The notes below the pieces were generated by a model. The model was not told where the DNA came from and did not search any database. It saw nothing but the letters and a program-made list of their open reading frames with translations. From positions 1 to 15,766 of the forward strand of contig JBAXKK010000064.1 of NCBI GenBank assembly GCA_037137395.1: a stretch of 15,766 nt of DNA, written 5' to 3'. Made by a program: the position numbers and the translations under genes. This DNA comes from Elusimicrobiota bacterium (GTDB lineage Bacteria > Elusimicrobiota > Elusimicrobia > Elusimicrobiales > UBA9959). This document shows, one piece after another, positions 6,546-15,766 of the stretch (position 1 is the first letter of the stretch; each line of letters starts with the position of its first letter).

Positions 6546-7130
6546 ATGCCCAAAATAAAAGCGATGTTGTTGAATGCCGTGCTATTGTTCTCGCTGGCAA
6601 ACTTCGCCGGAGCCGCCGATCCCCGGGTCAAAGGGACCGCTTCCGCAAATGATTTAAAGCCGACATCAGCGGTTGAACTCCTCTTCGCTATCGCCCCTTC
6701 CCCCGACATCCGGGATATAATCGCCGGCCAAAAAATAGAAGCCGCACCTTTCTTTTCTGAAAGCGGAAAGGTCATAGAGCCTGGCCGCGACCTGGCTCCT
6801 AAAGTAGAAGACGCTGCGCGTGTCAGAGCGATACTTAAACTTGTCAGTGATGTTTACAACAACGTGCCTCTGCCTTATTCCCAGGATGGTTCTATTTTTA
6901 AGAATAAGGAAGGACAGCTGCCGCAGCAGCCCCTCGGTTTCTACAAGGAATATACGCTCCTGACCGGCAACGCGCCGCATGAGGTGGTAATCAATGGCCA
7001 AACCTATCAGGTTTCACCCGATATGGGCGAGCGCGGCTCGGAGCGCGTGGTCATGGGTGGAGGCGAAAAACTTTACTACACTCCGGACCATTACGCGCAT
7101 TTTATACAATTAACTGTGGTGAGAGGTTAG
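6546..7130 (+). CDS. Secreted guanyl-specific ribonuclease (RNase Sa/N1/barnase family)
   Basis: Signal peptide ending AGA-A. The C-terminal domain LPYSQDGSIFKNKEGQLP..GFYKEYT..RGSERVV..YYTPDHYAHF matches the RNase Sa pattern, with catalytic Glu, Arg and His retained. Confidence 0.92.
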   Translation: MPKIKAMLLNAVLLFSLANFAGAADPRVKGTASANDLKPTSAVELLFAIAPSPDIRDIIAGQKIEAAPFFSESGKVIEPGRDLAPKVEDAARVRAILKLVSDVYNNVPLPYSQDGSIFKNKEGQLPQQPLGFYKEYTLLTGNAPHEVVINGQTYQVSPDMGERGSERVVMGGGEKLYYTPDHYAHFIQLTVVRG

Positions 7131-7159
7131 ACGCCCAAAAGCCCACGTAAAACCAAGTC

Positions 7160-7254
7160 GTCTTTCCGGCGAAAGCCGGAATCCATGAATACAGACTGCA
7201 CTGGACCCCGGCTTCCGCCCCCAGTTTCACGGTGGGGCAGGTCGCCGGGGAGAC
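7160..7254. repeat. REP/RPE-type paired palindromic repeat element
   Basis: gtctttccggcgaaagccggaatcca (7160-7185) and tggaccccggctt[insert]tcgccggggagac (7202-7254) resemble the widespread GTCATTCCCGCGAAAGCGGGAATCCA...TGGATCCCCGCCTTCGCGGGGATGAC family, which reads WIPAFAG on the minus strand. Confidence 0.8.
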
Positions 7255-7370
7255 ATTAAAAGTTGCACTAGAACGATGGGAAATGTCTCGCCGAGACCTC
7301 CGCCTTATCAACTTTTGAGTAGACACAGGTTAGCCGGAAGGGAGCGGTTTCCCTGAAGGAAGAGAGGAGC

Positions 7371-7772
7371 ATGGACCCCCGCGACGCGATTTCGGACCGG
7401 GAAGTTTTTCTGAGGCTTGAAGGAAAAGATCTGAAAGCGGAGGAAATAGAAAAACTATTTTCTCCGCTTGGTTATTTTACGCTCCGTTTGGACGGAACTA
7501 AAATTAAGAATAAAGCGGACCTGCTTGCCGCCCTGGCATCCGGTTTGAAGTTTCCGGCGTATTTCGGGCATAACTGGGACGCGCTGCTGGATTGCCTGCG
7601 CTCCCTGCCGGACTTTATTAAAGCCGGCGGCTACGCGGTCATAATAGAAAGTTCCGACTTTTTTCTGGCCGATTCTTTTTCCGACCGGGATAATTTCAGG
7701 GATATTGTAGAAACAGCGGCCGGATTCCTGGCTGAAAAATACAAACTCAGGTTTAAGGTGATAATGCTATGA
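7371..7772 (+). CDS. Barstar family ribonuclease inhibitor
   Basis: LDGTKIKNKADLLAALASGLKFPAYFGHNWDALLDCL is the barstar signature. GAGGAG RBS. Lies downstream of the barnase-family RNase. Confidence 0.93.
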   Translation: MDPRDAISDREVFLRLEGKDLKAEEIEKLFSPLGYFTLRLDGTKIKNKADLLAALASGLKFPAYFGHNWDALLDCLRSLPDFIKAGGYAVIIESSDFFLADSFSDRDNFRDIVETAAGFLAEKYKLRFKVIML

Positions 7773-8548: not shown

Positions 8549-8610
8549 AAAGCCATTTTTACGATTTGTTATGCCCTGGTTGCTCTGCTCGTGTCAGTAC
8601 GAAATAGCCA

Positions 8611-8639
8611 TTGAAAAGAGCCAGTTTTTATATTAGACT
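8611..8639 (+). promoter_or_regulatory. Putative sigma70 promoter of the exported-protein/hxs operon
   Basis: TTGAAA (8611-8616), 17 bp spacer, TAGACT (8634-8639), in an AT-rich context. Confidence 0.55.
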
Positions 8640-8759: not shown

Positions 8760-9482
8760 ATGGAAAACACGAATATCACAACTTTTGAGTTGCGGTTTAC
8801 CAAAGGAAAGGCGCTTTTAATCCTGACGGCTTTTTTCCTCTGTTGGCATCCCAGGTTTCTCGGCTCGGAAACCCTGACCCTGACTACTTATTATCCCGCG
8901 CCTTACGGCGGTTATAATAATTTGTTAACCACCGGCCAGACTCTGCTGGCCAGGGATGGCGGCGTGGCCGGCTCATATGTAAACATAGGCGCGGGCTATA
9001 ATGGCACCGGCAGCCGGCGTGACGCGAATGTTAAATTGGAAGTGGGAGACGGCGGCATAAGTACCTCTAACGGCGTGCAGTGGGGCCTTAACCGTTCAGC
9101 CCTGACTACCGAGCAGGGCGGATCAATAGAGCTGGGCGGGGCGGGCGGCACCCCGCGTGTTGATTTTAGCCAGAATATGACGCAGGACTATTCAGCCAGG
9201 CTGTGGCTGTCTCAGCCGGGCCGTCTTGAGGTCGTCGGTGACTTTGCCGTCACCGGGATCATACAGAATGTTTGCAGCCGGGTTCCCTACATCACCGGCC
9301 CGGTTTCGTTTTGTCCCACCGACACTGACGGGGTTGCCAGGAAGATAGTCGGTTCCTACGGTGACGGCGTCGCGCGCGTGACCGGGTATCTCCCCACAAC
9401 CCAGACTTTTGGCACCACGAACAGCGTCGCCATCACTCAGGGCCAGGACTGGAACGGCATAATGATTTGCTGCAGATTTTAA
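8760..9482 (+). CDS. Exported fibre/adhesin-like hypothetical protein A (TTYYPAPYG motif, C-terminal CCRF)
   Basis: 240 aa. Basic-then-hydrophobic leader, ETLTLTTYYPAPYGGY, a Gly-rich beta region containing QGGSIELGG..PRVDF..DYSARL, and a four-Cys C-terminal domain. Close paralog of the next gene. Confidence 0.8.
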   Translation: MENTNITTFELRFTKGKALLILTAFFLCWHPRFLGSETLTLTTYYPAPYGGYNNLLTTGQTLLARDGGVAGSYVNIGAGYNGTGSRRDANVKLEVGDGGISTSNGVQWGLNRSALTTEQGGSIELGGAGGTPRVDFSQNMTQDYSARLWLSQPGRLEVVGDFAVTGIIQNVCSRVPYITGPVSFCPTDTDGVARKIVGSYGDGVARVTGYLPTTQTFGTTNSVAITQGQDWNGIMICCRF

Positions 9483-9525
9483 TTGACAGGCGCGCGTGTT
9501 AGCGGGTTTCAAGGCAAAGGGTTTT

Positions 9526-10236
9526 ATGGAAAACGAAAACATCCTGACCTTGCGGCTGAGGCTGACCGGGAGAAAAGCACTTTTTATCCTGACCGCTTTT
9601 TTTCTGGCCTGGCGTCCCGGTTTTCTGGGGTCGGAGACTTTAACACTGACGACTTATTATCCAGCGCCTTACGGGGGATACGCCGCCCTGCTGACTACCG
9701 GTCAGACCCTGCTGGCCAGGGACGGCGGGGTCGCTAATTACATAAATGTAGGCGCCGGCTATAACGGCACCGGCAGCCGACGTGACGCGACTGTCAAGCT
9801 GGAAGTGGGAGACGGCGGAATAAGCGTCTCCAACGGAATGCGATGGGGCGCAGGCCGCGGCGCCCTTACTACAGATCAAGGCGGCTCTATAGAGTTGGGC
9901 GGGGCTGGCGGCGGCTATCCGCGCGTTGATTTCAGCCAGAATATGGCGCAGGATCATTCAGCCAGGCTGTGGCTGGCTCAGGCGGGCCGCCTTGAGGTTG
10001 TCGGCGATTTTTCTCTTACCGGGGTTATACAAGACGCCTGCAGCCGCGTCGCCCACACCGCGTCCTGCCCGGCCGACTCTGACGGGGTTGTCCGCAAGCA
10101 GATGGTCGGCTTTCTCCCCGACTCCAGCGGATATGTAAGCGGATTTCTGTACAAGAACGGAGCGGCTGGCGTGGGGACATATGTACGTATGCCCTACACC
10201 CGCAGCGGTGTCAAGGTTTGTTGTAGATTTAATTGA
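9526..10236 (+). CDS. Exported fibre/adhesin-like hypothetical protein B, tandem paralog of A
   Basis: Start moved to ATG 9526 (MENENIL) by alignment with protein A (MENTNIT). 236 aa, same motifs, ends CCRFN. Confidence 0.8.
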   Translation: MENENILTLRLRLTGRKALFILTAFFLAWRPGFLGSETLTLTTYYPAPYGGYAALLTTGQTLLARDGGVANYINVGAGYNGTGSRRDATVKLEVGDGGISVSNGMRWGAGRGALTTDQGGSIELGGAGGGYPRVDFSQNMAQDHSARLWLAQAGRLEVVGDFSLTGVIQDACSRVAHTASCPADSDGVVRKQMVGFLPDSSGYVSGFLYKNGAAGVGTYVRMPYTRSGVKVCCRFN

Positions 10237-10273
10237 GCGGTTGACGGCGAGCCGGCCGTTAAAGGAGCGTGGT

Positions 10274-10744
10274 TTGACTAAAACAACTTTGAGCGTGAAA
10301 GTAAATGCGAAGGACTACGATCTCGATGCCGTCCGCTATGCCGCGTACGCCGTAAGCGACGCGGCGTATGTTTTTATAAAACCGGGGGTCGGAGGCGTGA
10401 CTGTTGAATTCGTCCCCAAAAACTCCGCCGCGAAAAATATCAGCGCGCGCTTTAAAGGAGAGCTTAAGGATGAAAAACTGCGCGCCTCTATTTTTGACGC
10501 CAACCGCGATCTGCGGGAATTTATGATCCTGAAGGCGCTGGCCTATGAGGAAATTCCGGCCGGCGTCAGGCAGGAGGACTCCGGCCTTACTCCGGAGCAG
10601 GAGAAGGAACTGGACGCTTTGATCGCGCAGGTTGAGGGTGAGATAAAAAAGGAATCTGCCGGGAATAAGACCAAAGATCCGCTCGGGATCACAAGGACAT
10701 GGGAAGAAAAATATGGCTCAAAAAACGGCCGCAAAAAAAAGTAA
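10274..10744 (+). CDS. hxsD: His-Xaa-Ser system protein HxsD-like with C-terminal extension
   Basis: TTG start 6 nt after AAGGAG. Pattern YDLDAVRYAAY..YVFI..F..EL.DEKLR..I...R..REF...AL is typical of HxsD. Lies immediately upstream of hxsB. Confidence 0.75.
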   Translation: MTKTTLSVKVNAKDYDLDAVRYAAYAVSDAAYVFIKPGVGGVTVEFVPKNSAAKNISARFKGELKDEKLRASIFDANRDLREFMILKALAYEEIPAGVRQEDSGLTPEQEKELDALIAQVEGEIKKESAGNKTKDPLGITRTWEEKYGSKNGRKKK

Positions 10745-12170
10745 AAAAATAACTTCCGTGCTGCCGCAGGTCTTGTGGCGTAAAATAGGCGCGAATTATC
10801 TGCTCACCAACGATTCAGGTCATTACGCGTGGCTTAAGGAAAAGGACTTCGCGCTGGTCACAGTCGGCGGGATGACCGAGCTCCATCCGCTTTTTGCGGA
10901 GCTGGCCGTAAAAGGGTTCATCCGGAACCGCCTGGATTTTAACGACCTGGCCGCGAAGTGGAAAAAGAAAAACGCCTACCTGAATTACGGCCCCGGCCTG
11001 CATATCCTGGTGATGACGCTCAGGTGTAATCATAAATGTCTTTATTGCCAGTCCAGCGCGGCCGGCGTGGGAGACAAGAAGACCGACATGAATCTCGCGA
11101 CCGCGCGCAAAAGCGTGGATTTCGCCTTTAATTCCCCCAACCCGGGCATAACCATAGAATTCCAGGGCGGAGAGCCTCTGCTGAACTGGGAAGTGCTTAA
11201 AGGCGCGGTTGAATACGCGCGTAAAAAATCCGGGACGGCGGGCAAAGAATTAAAATTGGCGCTGGTTTCTAATTTCAGCCTCATGACGGAGGAGAAGGCC
11301 AATTTTCTCCTCAAAAACGAGGTTTCCCTGTGCACTTCGCTTGACGGCCCGAAAAATCTGCACGACAAGAACAGGATTTGTTCATCCGGGAATTCGCACT
11401 CCGACACTGTAAAATGGATAAAGTATTTTCAGAAACGATGCAAAAAACAGGTTCCGGAGTACCGGGTTTTCAAGCCGAGCGCGCTGCTTACCGTCTCCAA
11501 GTATTCGCTGCCGCGGCATAAGGAAATTATAGACGAGTATGTCAGGCTGGGTCTGGAGGACATATTCGTCAGGCCGCTCGCTCCCATCGGTTACGCGCGG
11601 AAGCTCTGGGGCACCATCGGTTACGACGCCGCGGATTTCGCGGCGTTCTACCTCAAGAGCCTTGACTATATGCTCAAGCTTAACCGCCAAGGCGTGGTTA
11701 TCCGGGAGAAAATGGCCACCATGATGCTGGACAAGATAGTAAATTTGCAGGACCCGGGATATCTGGACGCGCGCTGCCCCTGCGGAGCGGCCATCGGCCA
11801 GATAGCTTACAATCATAACGGCGACCTTTATACCTGCGACGAGGGCCGCATGGTTGGTTGGGAGGGGGATGATCTCTTCCGCATAGGCAATGTATTTAAA
11901 GATAGCTATAAAAAGGTGATGACTGACCCGGTCACCAAGGTCTGCGTCGTTTCATCAAATCTGGAGGCCCAGCCGGCCTGCGCCCGCTGCGCTTATAAGC
12001 CCTATTGCGGCGTGTGCCCCGTGTATAATTACGAGGTTCAGGGATCCTTGTGGGGGAATATCCCCTCAAACGACCGCTGCGGGCTTTTTAAAGGTATATT
12101 GGACACGCTTTTCACGCTTTTGAAAAGTCCCGGTAACGCGGAGATACTTAAAAAATGGGTGACAAAATGA
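10713..12170 (+). CDS. hxsB: His-Xaa-Ser system radical SAM/SPASM maturase HxsB
   Basis: N-terminal YLLTNDSG, TLRCNHKCLYCQ (CxxxCxxC), IEFQGGEPLLN, TSLDGP..LHD.NR, CPCGAAIGQIAYNHNGDLYTCDEGRM and a SPASM-type CARCAYKPYCGVCPV..RC motif. Confidence 0.9.
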   Translation: MAQKTAAKKSKKITSVLPQVLWRKIGANYLLTNDSGHYAWLKEKDFALVTVGGMTELHPLFAELAVKGFIRNRLDFNDLAAKWKKKNAYLNYGPGLHILVMTLRCNHKCLYCQSSAAGVGDKKTDMNLATARKSVDFAFNSPNPGITIEFQGGEPLLNWEVLKGAVEYARKKSGTAGKELKLALVSNFSLMTEEKANFLLKNEVSLCTSLDGPKNLHDKNRICSSGNSHSDTVKWIKYFQKRCKKQVPEYRVFKPSALLTVSKYSLPRHKEIIDEYVRLGLEDIFVRPLAPIGYARKLWGTIGYDAADFAAFYLKSLDYMLKLNRQGVVIREKMATMMLDKIVNLQDPGYLDARCPCGAAIGQIAYNHNGDLYTCDEGRMVGWEGDDLFRIGNVFKDSYKKVMTDPVTKVCVVSSNLEAQPACARCAYKPYCGVCPVYNYEVQGSLWGNIPSNDRCGLFKGILDTLFTLLKSPGNAEILKKWVTK

Positions 12171-12460
12171 AGACCTCACTTCCTGAAAAAAAACTTATCC
12201 TGGATAACGGGATCTATTGCGCCGAAGCCGTTAAGCTGGCCGCTTTCGTGTTTTCCGGCAGAGTCGATATAAAGATCAAGCCCGGTAAAAGCGCTTCGCA
12301 GATTCTTATCGGCGCCCAATCTTCGGACCTAGCCGCCGGAGAGTTTATGAACGAGGTTTTGAACCAGCAGTGCCGCATAGACCTGGCGAAGAAAAATTCC
12401 AAGATCGCCGGCATTATAGTCACCAAGGCCCTGCTGTCAGCCGCCGGGAAAAAAAGCTGA
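12167..12460 (+). CDS. Second HxsD-like protein
   Basis: ATGA-coupled to the hxsB stop. IYCAEAVKLAAFVF...GEFMNEVLNQQCR..L....IVTKAL follows the HxsD pattern. Confidence 0.7.
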   Translation: MKTSLPEKKLILDNGIYCAEAVKLAAFVFSGRVDIKIKPGKSASQILIGAQSSDLAAGEFMNEVLNQQCRIDLAKKNSKIAGIIVTKALLSAAGKKS

Positions 12461-12536
12461 CGGCTGGCATGCCGGACGGCGATCAGCCGCAAAGAAGTCC
12501 CGCTTCACTCTTTCCGCTTTATGCCCCGTAATATTT

Positions 12537-13424
12537 ATGCCAGACATACCGTTTTGGAATAAGTGCAATAATAAGTGCGTCATGTGCACAAACCTGCCGG
12601 AGTTCGCAGCTCAGGAAGCCGCTCTGTACGGCTTGAAAAGCCAGATAAAAAAACTGGAAAGCTATTTGAAGGGCCTCGGTCCGGTCTACCTCAAAAATAA
12701 CGATAAAGCGGATTTTTTAAGCCTCACAGGCGGCGAGCCTACGCTGCACCCGGATTTTTTCAGGTTGCTGGCTTATTTCAAAAGAAGGCTGCCCGGCGTC
12801 AGCATCACTCTGCTTTCCAACGGCAGGCGTTTCGCGGATAAGGATTTTACGCGGCGGTTTCTGAAGATGGCCGGTTCGCGCCTGACGGTCGCCGTCCCCC
12901 TGCACGGAGCTTCCTCCCGTGTTCACGACAAGGTTGCCGGAGTAAGGGGCGCCTTTCGGGAAACGGTAGGCGGACTTGAGAATCTGCTGGCGGGGCCGGA
13001 AGGCGTTTTTCTTGAGATAAGGCTGGTTCTGCATCGCCTTAATATCAAAGAGTTCTCAAAGATACTTTTATTTCTGCGTGAGAACTTGCCTTTCCCAGGC
13101 AGATACAGGGTGGTAGTCATTCATTACGAGATAGAGGGAATGTCGCTCAAAAACCATAAAAGCCTCGCGCTCAGGCTTTCCGATTCGGCCAGAGTGATAA
13201 ACGCCGCCGCCTCGCTGATAGAAACCTTTCCGGATCTCAGGCTCTATCATTTCCCGCTATGCCTGATAAAAAATAAACTGCGGAGCCGGTGCTGGATAAC
13301 CCTGCCGGCTGAAGACCGGATCTATACAAAAAAATGTGACGGGTGCAAAGCCAGAAAAGAGTGTCTGGGCCTTATGCTGGAATATTACAAGGAATTCGGA
13401 GACGCGGAGCTTAAAACATTATGA
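12537..13424 (+). CDS. hxsC: Radical SAM protein, HxsC-like
   Basis: CNNKCVMC, LTGGEPTL, LLSNGRRF, VPLHG...HD, EIRLVLH, LYHFPLC and a C-terminal CDGC....CLG motif. Context next to hxsB. Confidence 0.75.
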   Translation: MPDIPFWNKCNNKCVMCTNLPEFAAQEAALYGLKSQIKKLESYLKGLGPVYLKNNDKADFLSLTGGEPTLHPDFFRLLAYFKRRLPGVSITLLSNGRRFADKDFTRRFLKMAGSRLTVAVPLHGASSRVHDKVAGVRGAFRETVGGLENLLAGPEGVFLEIRLVLHRLNIKEFSKILLFLRENLPFPGRYRVVVIHYEIEGMSLKNHKSLALRLSDSARVINAAASLIETFPDLRLYHFPLCLIKNKLRSRCWITLPAEDRIYTKKCDGCKARKECLGLMLEYYKEFGDAELKTL

Positions 13425-14578
13425 AATTTTTCGGTCTCTCATGTCTGGTCGTGTTTGTCATATGGGCTGTGGGCATTGTAAATATCGATATAGCCACAAA
13501 AAAGATCCCCAACGCCAGAGTGGCGCTCGGAGCCAAGCTGATGCTGCTGGCCCTGGGGGTGATGATGCTGAACACCTATCAGGGGTCAGTCGGTTCCGCG
13601 ACCAGTTACCTCACCTGGAACTTCTATCTCCTATGGTGCGCGCATTTCTTCTGGGCGGTCCTGGCCGGGGTGATACTCTGGTATTCCGAGATTTGGCCGG
13701 CGGGCGACGCCAAGTTCTTTATACTGGTCGCGGCCTGGCTGCCGCTGATAAATCCCTATATCAAGAATTTTCCAAATTATCTATTCCTGAGCCTGCTGAT
13801 AAACATTTTCGTCGCGGCAGCTCTGGTGACAATAGGCGCTTTTATCGCCTCCGGCCTGGCGCAGGCTAGCCTTGGAGACTTTTTAAAAAGTATCTGGTCC
13901 GACCTGAAAGTCAGGATGAAAAGCATGGCAGGTGATAACAAGAAGAACGGATGGCTGATAACGGCGTATATTGCCAATATGACTTTTCTGTTCCTGCTGC
14001 AACAGATCATGAACGCTGAAAGTCGGCATTTGCTGTCCAGGTTTCTGGCCCGCCCTGATATTATTTACTTCTTTCTGTTCTTTCTCTGGGACAAGATCGG
14101 TTCGGTCTTTCAGAGCAAGAAATGGCTTTATGTCACCACGGCCTGCTACGCCATATATTTCTTCGGCGGCTATTTTTACTTTTACGACCGGCTGGTCAGC
14201 CTTGTGTTCTACGCCATGGCAAATGTGGTCAAGTTCAGCCTGTTGCTTTTCTTCGGGCGGTTCGTCTTGGAAGCCCTGATAGAAAATAAAGACACGCAGT
14301 ACCTTAAGGCCTCGGAACTGGAACCGGGTATGATACTCCTGCCCAAAACGGCGCAGACCTTCAGGCAGAATCCGGTTTTTGAAGGCGCGTTCGACGATTG
14401 TTTTAAGGACGGCCTTACGGCGGAACAGATCCAGATCATAAAAGACTGGATGGCCAAGATGACCATGCCGGACCCCAAGATAGAAGTGATGCGCGGACGG
14501 CCTTTCGCGTTATGGATATTTGCCGGAGCGGTTATTTCGATTCTCTTCGATAAAACCATCGTGCACCTTCTTAAATGA
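13421..14578 (+). CDS. A24 family GxGD aspartic membrane peptidase (archaeal FlaK/EppA-like prepilin peptidase)
   Basis: Multi-TM protein. First Asp in NIDIATKKIPN, second in WPAGDAK. C-terminal soluble segment ELEPGMIL...DGLTAEQI followed by RPFALWIFAG. ATGA-coupled to both neighbours. Confidence 0.8.
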   Translation: MKFFGLSCLVVFVIWAVGIVNIDIATKKIPNARVALGAKLMLLALGVMMLNTYQGSVGSATSYLTWNFYLLWCAHFFWAVLAGVILWYSEIWPAGDAKFFILVAAWLPLINPYIKNFPNYLFLSLLINIFVAAALVTIGAFIASGLAQASLGDFLKSIWSDLKVRMKSMAGDNKKNGWLITAYIANMTFLFLLQQIMNAESRHLLSRFLARPDIIYFFLFFLWDKIGSVFQSKKWLYVTTACYAIYFFGGYFYFYDRLVSLVFYAMANVVKFSLLLFFGRFVLEALIENKDTQYLKASELEPGMILLPKTAQTFRQNPVFEGAFDDCFKDGLTAEQIQIIKDWMAKMTMPDPKIEVMRGRPFALWIFAGAVISILFDKTIVHLLK

Positions 14579-15507
14579 CAAAAGAAAACGCAAAGATGCT
14601 GAAGATAGTCCTGTTCACCGGTTACGCGTGCAGTAACCGCTGCGTGTTCTGCATCGGCGCGGATAAGCGGAACCTGCGGGGGCGGACCACCAAAGAGCTG
14701 CTTGCTTCTGTCTACGCGGCCAAAAAAAAAGGCGCGGATATCCTTGAGATCATCGGCGGTGAAGCCACTATAAGACCGGATTTTGCTGCCCTGGTTCGCG
14801 CCGCCAAGGATATAGGCATACGCGAAGTGGTTTGCGCCACTAACGGACGGGTGTTTTCTGATATGTCCATGGCCGGAGCGATTGTCGGGGCGGGAATAGA
14901 TGAACTTATCTTTTCGATACACGGGCCGTCCGCAGCGGTGCACGACAAAATGACCGCCAGCCCGGGCAGCTTCGCGGAGCTGAAGAAGGGCCTGGCCAAT
15001 CTTAAAAAGCTTGGGTTCAAGCGGATAAGCGGCAATACCACAGTGGTCAAGGGTAATATGCGCTCCCTTCCGGAAATAGCCAGATTTTATGTCCGGCTGG
15101 GGATCCGCAATGTGGAATACATCTTTGTGGATCCCAATTACGGAGGCGCCCGGAACGATTTTGACGAACTGGTGCCCAGGATCTCGGCGGCCGCGCCGCA
15201 TATGCGCTCGGCGCTCAGGATCGGTCTCACCGCCGGCTTTGATCAGTGGAAAGTCCGGTATGTTCCCCTATGTCATTTTATAGGTTATGAGGCGCAGATA
15301 AGCGAGATGAACGAGCGGGTCAACTTTCTGACCGAACACTGGGCACCTGATTTTAAAAACACGGACGCCATCGGTTCGCGGAGCGCCGTTGGCAGACGGC
15401 GCACGGCCGTCTGTAAAGGCTGCGCTCGTCTCCATGTCTGTGAAGGCATATGGGTTGAATATTTGAAGCATTACGGAGACGGGGAACTGAGGCCGATAAA
15501 GAGGTAG
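14575..15507 (+). CDS. Radical SAM protein, second HxsC-like paralog
   Basis: CSNRCVFC, IGGEATIRPD, ATNGR, FSIHG...VHD, RYVPLC and a C-terminal CKGC....CEGIW..Y...YGDGELRP, parallel to the C-terminus of 12537..13424. Confidence 0.85.
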   Translation: MTKENAKMLKIVLFTGYACSNRCVFCIGADKRNLRGRTTKELLASVYAAKKKGADILEIIGGEATIRPDFAALVRAAKDIGIREVVCATNGRVFSDMSMAGAIVGAGIDELIFSIHGPSAAVHDKMTASPGSFAELKKGLANLKKLGFKRISGNTTVVKGNMRSLPEIARFYVRLGIRNVEYIFVDPNYGGARNDFDELVPRISAAAPHMRSALRIGLTAGFDQWKVRYVPLCHFIGYEAQISEMNERVNFLTEHWAPDFKNTDAIGSRSAVGRRRTAVCKGCARLHVCEGIWVEYLKHYGDGELRPIKR

Positions 15508-15512
15508 CGACC

Positions 15513-15592
15513 GCCATAGGCCGTAAGCAAAAAAGACCTGCTATACGCTTTAGGCTATAGGCCGTAGGCAGAAAGGCAGCCATACGCTTTAA
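15513..15592. repeat. Degenerate heptamer tandem repeats
   Basis: gccatag gccgtaa ... gctatac gctttag gctatag gccgtag gcagaaa .. gccatac gctttaa; same family as positions 10-55. Confidence 0.8.
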
Positions 15593-15595
15593 CCC

Positions 15596-15660
15596 GAATC
15601 CTGCAGTTCAGAATGATTCCCATAGAGAAATCAGTGGAACAAAATTATTCTGCAGGATTC
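15596..15660. repeat. 11-bp perfect inverted repeat enclosing 43 bp
   Basis: gaatcctgcag (15596-15606) and ctgcaggattc (15650-15660). Confidence 0.6.
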
Positions 15661-15766
15661 CCCGCGAAGCGGGCGGAGGGCCAAGCGCTATGCGCGACAG
15701 GCCCGACGGGGTGTATTCCTCCCGAAGGGCGCCAGTTATACGGGCGGAAAACTTCAACTGAAGTTT

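Follow-up and report, generated by a model that had tools for sequence, protein, structure and literature searches.

The front of an enlarged His-Xaa-Ser radical SAM cluster in Elusimicrobiota, with an A24-type protease that likely cuts the HxsA leader

What might a membrane protease of the prepilin peptidase type be doing among radical S-adenosylmethionine (SAM) genes of the His-Xaa-Ser (HXS) type? The question is raised by contig JBAXKK010000064.1 of an Elusimicrobiota bacterium (assembly GCA_037137395.1; 174 contigs, 98.9% complete), which was analysed over its whole length of 15,766 nucleotides and is called here the window, or C64; C61, C31, C36, C101, C3 and C62 are other contigs of the same genome, L numbers are individual loci or contigs of relatives or metagenomes, and G numbers are genomes. 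Genome searches were confined to Elusimicrobiota, to which the named relatives belong. An earlier sequence-only reading had taken eight genes of the window for an operon that lacks the usual substrate HxsA and acts on two exported proteins, A and B, instead. Our analysis points to another answer, namely that the window is the front of an enlarged HXS cluster whose own A24 protease likely cuts the leader of HxsA. The eight genes, all on the + strand and at the positions that had been given for them, are as follows.

8760..9482, +: exported protein A, TTYYPAP family, likely a short adhesive fibre (from its sequence conservation pattern)
9526..10236, +: exported protein B, tandem duplicate of A (67% identity to A)
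10274..10744, +: HxsD-like adaptor 1 (TIGR03976 42.9 bits, E 4.6e-11, cut-off 50)
10713..12170, +: HxsB radical SAM/SPASM maturase (TIGR03978 483 bits, cut-off 370)
12167..12460, +: HxsD-like adaptor 2 (TIGR03976 39.5 bits, cut-off 50)
12537..13424, +: HxsC-like radical SAM enzyme (TIGR03977 167 bits, cut-off 267.9)
13421..14578, +: A24-type (FlaK-fold) membrane aspartyl protease, 385 amino acids, likely HxsA leader peptidase (PF01478 19.7, cut-off 26.5)
14575..15507, +: HxsC4-like radical SAM enzyme (NF038332 126 bits, cut-off 500)

The spacing between these genes runs from -32 to +76 nt; the gap between B and hxsD is 37 nt when counted from the TTG start of HxsD-like adaptor 1 at 10274, which in our reading of the sequence is preceded by an AAAGGAG site. 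In the profile searches HxsB passed its cut-off, but the HxsD-like, HxsC-like, HxsC4-like and PF01478 matches fell below theirs. Both HxsD-like matches (E about 1e-10) span most of the TIGR03976 model with scores short of 50, and TIGR03977 is the top family match of the gene at 12537..13424 but below cut-off, which makes its product HxsC-like and not the equivalog; it has CxxxCxxC and a C-terminal Cys cluster.

Is HxsA really missing? A scan bore out that no open reading frame with HxS repeats lies within the window. A six-frame scan of all 174 contigs, on the other hand, found the sole true HxS-repeat protein of the genome at C61:11592-12020. This HxsA has 142 amino acids and 27 His-Xaa-Ser repeats, and passes the HxsA4 model NF038313 at 91.4 against a cut-off of 55, a score that low-complexity repeats may inflate; its leader matches HxsA3 (NF038309) at 46.5 bits, under the cut-off. 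It terminates right behind its repeats, and Pfam gives only a collagen-like repeat match and finds no peptidoglycan-binding domain. The last 55 bases of C64 are exactly the first 55 of C61. Since C31 also has the same 55 bases at its end, the C64-C61 join rests on sister synteny: contig L095 of the sister species passes from C64:7784-15498 into C61:244-9241 at 93%, and the contig of a second relative, L097, likewise crosses the junction. With the join, hxsA begins about 11.8 kb beyond base 15507, and by these sequence comparisons the cluster likely continues on C61 with hxsA in it about 12 kb downstream. We therefore rejected the HxsA-less reading, since a canonical HxsA is present in the genome and synteny ties its contig to the window's end. 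Immediately before hxsA, C61:10326-11579 (L001) encodes a Cys-rich protein of 417 residues; it has a membrane anchor at its N-terminus and matches nothing in Pfam or NCBIfam. The C-termini of HxsA proteins (L065-L094) end in HGSY or in H[ASQ]RGGWC, types that partly follow lineage and may mark different products.

The gene order of relatives agrees with this placement. There, hxsA stands directly behind orthologues of the window's hxsD-hxsB-hxsD trio, with the order TT-hxsD-hxsB-hxsD-hxsA direct in, for example, L108, L118, L126, L130, L144, L148 and L150 (TT being a gene of the A/B type, TTYYP(AP)), and in several genera the series is TT-hxsD-hxsB-hxsD-hxsA, further hxsB/hxsC, hxsC, peptidase, hxsC. 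In a quick tree of 49 HxsB proteins, the window's HxsB and a second copy on C61 (TIGR03978 score 470) fall inside the clade of hxsD-flanked HxsB with 99% support by the Shimodaira-Hasegawa-like approximate likelihood ratio test (SH-aLRT), and this clade includes the copy that precedes hxsA in relatives. Gene order and clade together indicate that this lineage moved hxsA downstream and did not lose it. Many relatives have three distinct HxsB paralogue clades per cluster (L105, L108, L110, L118-L127, L130), and this genome has two close copies only. Sister synteny carries the cluster region on through C36 and C101, and by motif count C64, C61, C36 and C101 combined hold about 20 radical SAM open reading frames; the extended cluster (24 proteins scanned) adds U32, asparagine-synthase-like, B12-dependent, deacetylase and GNAT genes. 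C36 (L336:2307-5497) contributes to this extended cluster two tandem pairs of a U32-family gene with a shorter partner, beside an asparagine-synthase-like gene and radical SAM genes of the B12-dependent type. A PADLOC 2023 scan gave viperin cross-hits only. We regard it as very likely that the radical SAM enzymes act on HxsA.

Does the protease belong to the cluster? We examined 60 genomes of relatives, 36 from one Elusimicrobiales family and 24 others of the order. The peptidase occurs in 31 of the 36 family genomes and HxsA in 32, and both are absent from all 24 others. HxsA is present in 30 of the 31 family genomes with the peptidase, on the same contig in 22 and no more than 22 kb apart in 21 of these, the contig and distance counts having been taken by eye from two tables. 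In a phylum sample of 131 genomes, peptidase and HxsA occur in the same 10; as one family supplies 8 of the 10, the match is not independent and makes a statistically weak test. Another hxs-like gene is found in 78 of 80 peptidase loci, which makes the peptidase a fixed part of hxs clusters.

The same survey bears on the idea that the peptidase serves the Tad pilins on C3 as their missing TadV and lies among hxs genes by chance. The Tad locus at C3:31951-39971 has RcpC, TadE and two Flp-like pilins with no A24 gene adjacent, and a PF01478 search of the genome finds only PilD and the window peptidase, as this idea would have it. However, Tad RcpC is present in 110 of the 131 phylum genomes and the peptidase in 10, so the peptidase is not needed as TadV, and with the hxs-like neighbours in 78 of 80 loci this explanation is very improbable. 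PilD is encoded separately in this genome, next to the type IV pilins; at C62:9304-10520, before pilD, are two tandem type IV pilin genes whose first 110 residues are identical.

Alternatively, the substrates of the peptidase, and possibly of some radical SAM enzymes, might be the TTYYP proteins A and B, which would then be built into a surface structure. Their linkage to the cluster is real and conserved: of 32 loci with enough sequence upstream, 26 have a TT gene as the immediate neighbour ahead of hxsD, and 31 have one somewhere in the locus. TT genes are also found within 10 kb of the peptidase in 31 of 80 loci, against 21 of 80 for hxsA, and in L171 the peptidase gene has a TT gene as its direct neighbour. 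A FlaFind-like [KR][GA]xx motif is present in 11 of the 29 aligned TT proteins, A and B included, and in 23 of 29 the residue five places ahead of the invariant Glu is G, A or S. Against this, the HxS motif is absent from A and B; of the 131 phylum genomes, 15 have TT genes, 5 of them without peptidase or HxsA (with 15 matches in G038), and the present genome has TT genes at two further sites away from hxs genes; and in G016 the TT gene stays with the hxsD-hxsB-hxsD-hxsA group about 65 kb away from the peptidase. The putative -1 position is variable (A 17, V 7, L 3, T 1, R 1), and the invariant Glu has no run of hydrophobic residues behind it (mean 0.37). In A and B a G-F-L-G-S-E look-alike stands behind the helix, with polar residues after it, and the class III cut site is not conserved; from its sequence we infer that the helix, then L-G-S, then E would read as a signal peptidase I site. 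With no HxS motif and no conserved class III site, the proposal that A and B replace HxsA as substrate is unsupported, and action of the peptidase on them is improbable. A and B are likely fibres of the usual signal-peptidase-I kind, which accompany the cluster as partners and not as substrates.

As for what A and B are, the family (alignment of 29) is invariant in SE..TTYYPAP.G.Y and in a C-terminal CC, with a median identity of 0.78 over residues 28-70 and of 0.25 and 0.28 in the middle and C-part; more than one TT copy is found only in L095 and L109 among the 80 related peptidase loci. Neither protein has a Pfam, NCBIfam or PADLOC match of weight, and a literature search on TTYYP returned nothing relevant. 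The family resembles the Bdellovibrio MAT fibres (Caulton et al. 2024, PMC10769870) in its signal peptide, conserved N-part, variable tip and loop motif, a VGIGTxxPxxxL-type loop being present in 15 of the 29 members. In contrast to those fibres, its members are 206-302 residues long, give no S74 domain match and have the invariant TTYYPAP and the C-terminal CC, and A and B are without the loop motif; the likeness comes from sequence, and trimer and fold would be hypothetical. The TT profile matches Bd3182 (8OJN) weakly (E 0.014), the model of A is poor (pLDDT, the predicted local distance difference test score, 58; monomer) and gives no Foldseek match under E 0.001. From this weak MAT likeness a short adhesive fibre is our best guess. 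Matches in the Atlas all lie below 0.9 (best 0.89, unnamed; shufflon PilV 0.83) and are leads only. Tat export of A and B was considered for a TRR-like motif in 9 of 29 proteins and rejected, as no TatC turned up in this genome, which is 98.9% complete. The TT gene is fixed at the head of the cluster.

Is the protein at 13421..14578 an active A24 protease? Among 19 aligned peptidases, which share 22-67% identity, D23 and D96 (WPAGDxK; A94-G95-D96) are invariant in all. The best structural match of its model (pLDDT 81.6) among 48,161 chains is FlaK (3S0X), with Z 10.9, root-mean-square deviation 3.9 and 172 of 186 residues aligned; FlaK is the only chain above Z 8, and the runner-up reaches Z 6.4. 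Helical proteins may reach a Z of this size by chance. A sequence search of the Protein Data Bank (PDB) with the peptidase profile gave no matches, and the PF01478 domain is carried by 2 of 120 homologues among the matches listed. The window peptidase thus has the A24 catalytic aspartates and, in the predicted structure, a FlaK-like fold. No relative of it was found on the viral contigs searched, where of 121 HGS-pattern loci only the near-identical L348 and L351 are hxs clusters, of a short type with no peptidase.

What, then, would it cut? The N-terminus of HxsA has a basic leader, FLxSEEG, KMLDSD, a glycine-rich helix and an AxA site. SEE[GA] is closed by Gly in 14 and by Ala in 1 of 15 HxsA proteins, with six mostly polar residues before the helix, and Ala48 of the AxA site is kept in at least 90%. 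The predicted complex of the peptidase with HxsA 1-60 scores 0.66 (runs 0.64-0.69) and the best of the controls 0.00, with only three controls, none of them A/B or a pilin, and with self-built alignments; of 157 solved complexes 116 score at this level or higher, and of 215 mismatched pairs 2 do so. The runs share at least 77% of contacts, with a partner pLDDT of at least 63. The predicted interface comprises D23, protease residues 90-97 and HxsA 14-39, both catalytic aspartates included, and F362 is placed near Met23 and A94 near Phe15. It brackets Gly21 but, being a model, does not place a cut, and the most confident predicted contacts are helix-on-helix, between protease 123-137 and HxsA 28-36.

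These findings are consistent with the idea that the protease acts on HxsA, which we hold to be probable, with an even chance that the cut falls after Gly21. Other observations, in addition to the shared end of C31, the small control set, the unplaced cut, the TT genes near the peptidase and the dominance of one family noted above, weigh against it. PF01478 scores 19.7 and 24.1 in two scans against a gathering score of 26.5, and Foldseek ranks FlaK 20th (E 2.3). The class III prepilin rule, as given in PMC3244431, asks for an acidic residue, Asp or Glu, at +5 (in Flp, Tyr at +6) and for an N-terminal helix of strong hydrophobicity, and HxsA differs from such A24 prepilin substrates in both respects: its +5 residue is S or A (K in one) and never Asp/Glu (n=15), and the best 19-residue hydropathy of its helix is 1.2-1.9 against 2.1-2.8 for the seven pilins of this genome. 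In E. coli, cleavage of HxsA takes place in the absence of such a peptidase gene (PMC13128918). The leader motif (LP..K..FL..EE-type) also occurs on HxS precursors with no hydrophobic helix (L212, L250, L279, L286, L287), and the peptidase is found in 0 of 121 metagenome loci, including the 20-kb L220 and L279 with the motif, these loci being mostly short and the profile Elusimicrobiota-trained. The motif may thus firstly be a tag for the radical SAM enzymes.

This last point raises the possibility that FLxSEEG serves HxsB/HxsD recognition only, that signal peptidase I frees HxsA at AxA, and that the A24-like protein escorts or holds the precursor or cuts elsewhere in the helix. Besides the persistence of the motif on helix-less peptides and at loci with no detected peptidase, the conserved Ala48 and the helix-on-helix nature of the top contacts would fit such an arrangement. 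Yet both aspartates lie in the predicted interface and are invariant across sequences of 22-67% identity, which points to an active protease, and we judge this explanation unlikely, although less so than cleavage of A and B.

The reading we prefer, cleavage of the HxsA leader by the cluster's own protease, would proceed as follows. The basic leader ending in FLxSEEG would recruit HxsB/HxsD/HxsC in the cytoplasm, where the HxS repeats would be modified as in E. coli HXS. The weakly hydrophobic helix of HxsA (residues 28-41) would dock in the protease, with a cut on the cytoplasmic side, most likely after Gly21, and the product would cross the inner membrane, to stay attached through the helix or to be freed at the conserved AxA near residue 48. 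The modified poly-His tail would then act in the envelope, with anti-phage defence as the single most likely role, one that we put forward by analogy and tentatively. HxsA itself is probably where radical SAM chemistry meets pilin-type processing, a connection that had been sought in A and B.

The analogy is to the four-gene HXS of Pseudomonadota, HxsD-HxsB-HxsC-HxsA, an anti-phage system that blocks phage DNA entry, in which the cut of HxsA depends on HxsBCD and an HxS repeat gains +8 Da (Li et al. 2026, PMC13128918); the earlier statement that His-Xaa-Ser chemistry is uncharacterised is thus out of date. The two systems are alike in an HxsB above cut-off, HxsC- and HxsD-like genes and an exported-type tandem-HxS precursor that needs N-terminal processing. 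They differ in that the present precursor has 27 repeats where that of Pseudomonadota has 5, and is without a peptidoglycan-binding domain. The present cluster also holds two HxsD and about 20 radical SAM genes, together with enzymes of the U32, asparagine-synthase-like and B12-dependent kinds, its own A24 protease and a TTYYP gene in front, in an order other than D-B-C-A. Set against the NCBIfam models, the precursor passes HxsA4 and the last window gene is nearest HxsC4, with the HxsA3 and HxsC4 cut-offs not reached; HxsA4, HxsA3 and HxsC4 are family names with no tested function. With FlaK/PibD (3S0X), EppA and TadV the protease shares two aspartates, the second in a GD motif (PMC4858521, PMC3244431); it also has the predicted FlaK fold and a membrane part that is enlarged like that of EppA in its 9-helix form. 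Unlike the A24 prepilin peptidases of those accounts, it is 385 residues long with a large insertion and lies amid radical SAM and not pilus genes.

Three further features of the window complete the picture.

8605..8639, +: two weak sigma-70-like promoter candidates, each with 9 of 12 consensus positions
6546..7772, +: ribonuclease (PF00545) and barstar pair (Pfam matches)
15589..15766, no strand assigned: dispersed repeat of about 180 bp at the contig break, with many genome copies

A single promoter had been predicted; the region has 11 such sites against 6.0 +/- 2.5 in shuffles, an excess that is not clear. In 16 of 21 related loci the ribonuclease-barstar pair lies upstream of hxsD at a distance of no more than 4 kb, and it may belong to the same antagonism or defence unit as the hxs cluster. 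The repeat recurs at about 30 other genome positions and breaks the assembly; the sister species is without it here but has one copy at its barstar/hydrolase junction, and the repeat may be a small mobile element.

The sole experimental HXS study (PMC13128918) does not say which enzyme trims HxsA: its main text names no protease, and 'peptidase', 'protease' and 'pilin' occur there 0 times. Here a candidate lies in the cluster, tracks HxsA across genomes and is predicted to bind its leader. If this is true, an A24 protease would act on a radical-SAM-modified peptide and not on a pilin, and literature searches returned no paper that joins Hxs or other precursors of ribosomally synthesised and post-translationally modified peptides (RiPPs) to a prepilin peptidase, nor one on this HXS variant, the supplements of PMC13128918 lying outside the search. 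A bolder possibility, which we consider rather improbable, is that HxsA is a miniature pilin-like subunit. The protease would leave it with an N-terminal membrane helix, its 27-repeat histidine tail would be decorated by radical SAM and other enzymes, as many as 20 of them, and the product would be displayed or polymerised in the envelope with the fast-evolving TTYYP fibre as its partner; if that were true, a RiPP would be matured by pilin-type processing into a surface structure. The cluster, near-universal at 31-32 of 36 genomes in one Elusimicrobiales family and not found in the 24 others of the order, looks like that family's core biology.

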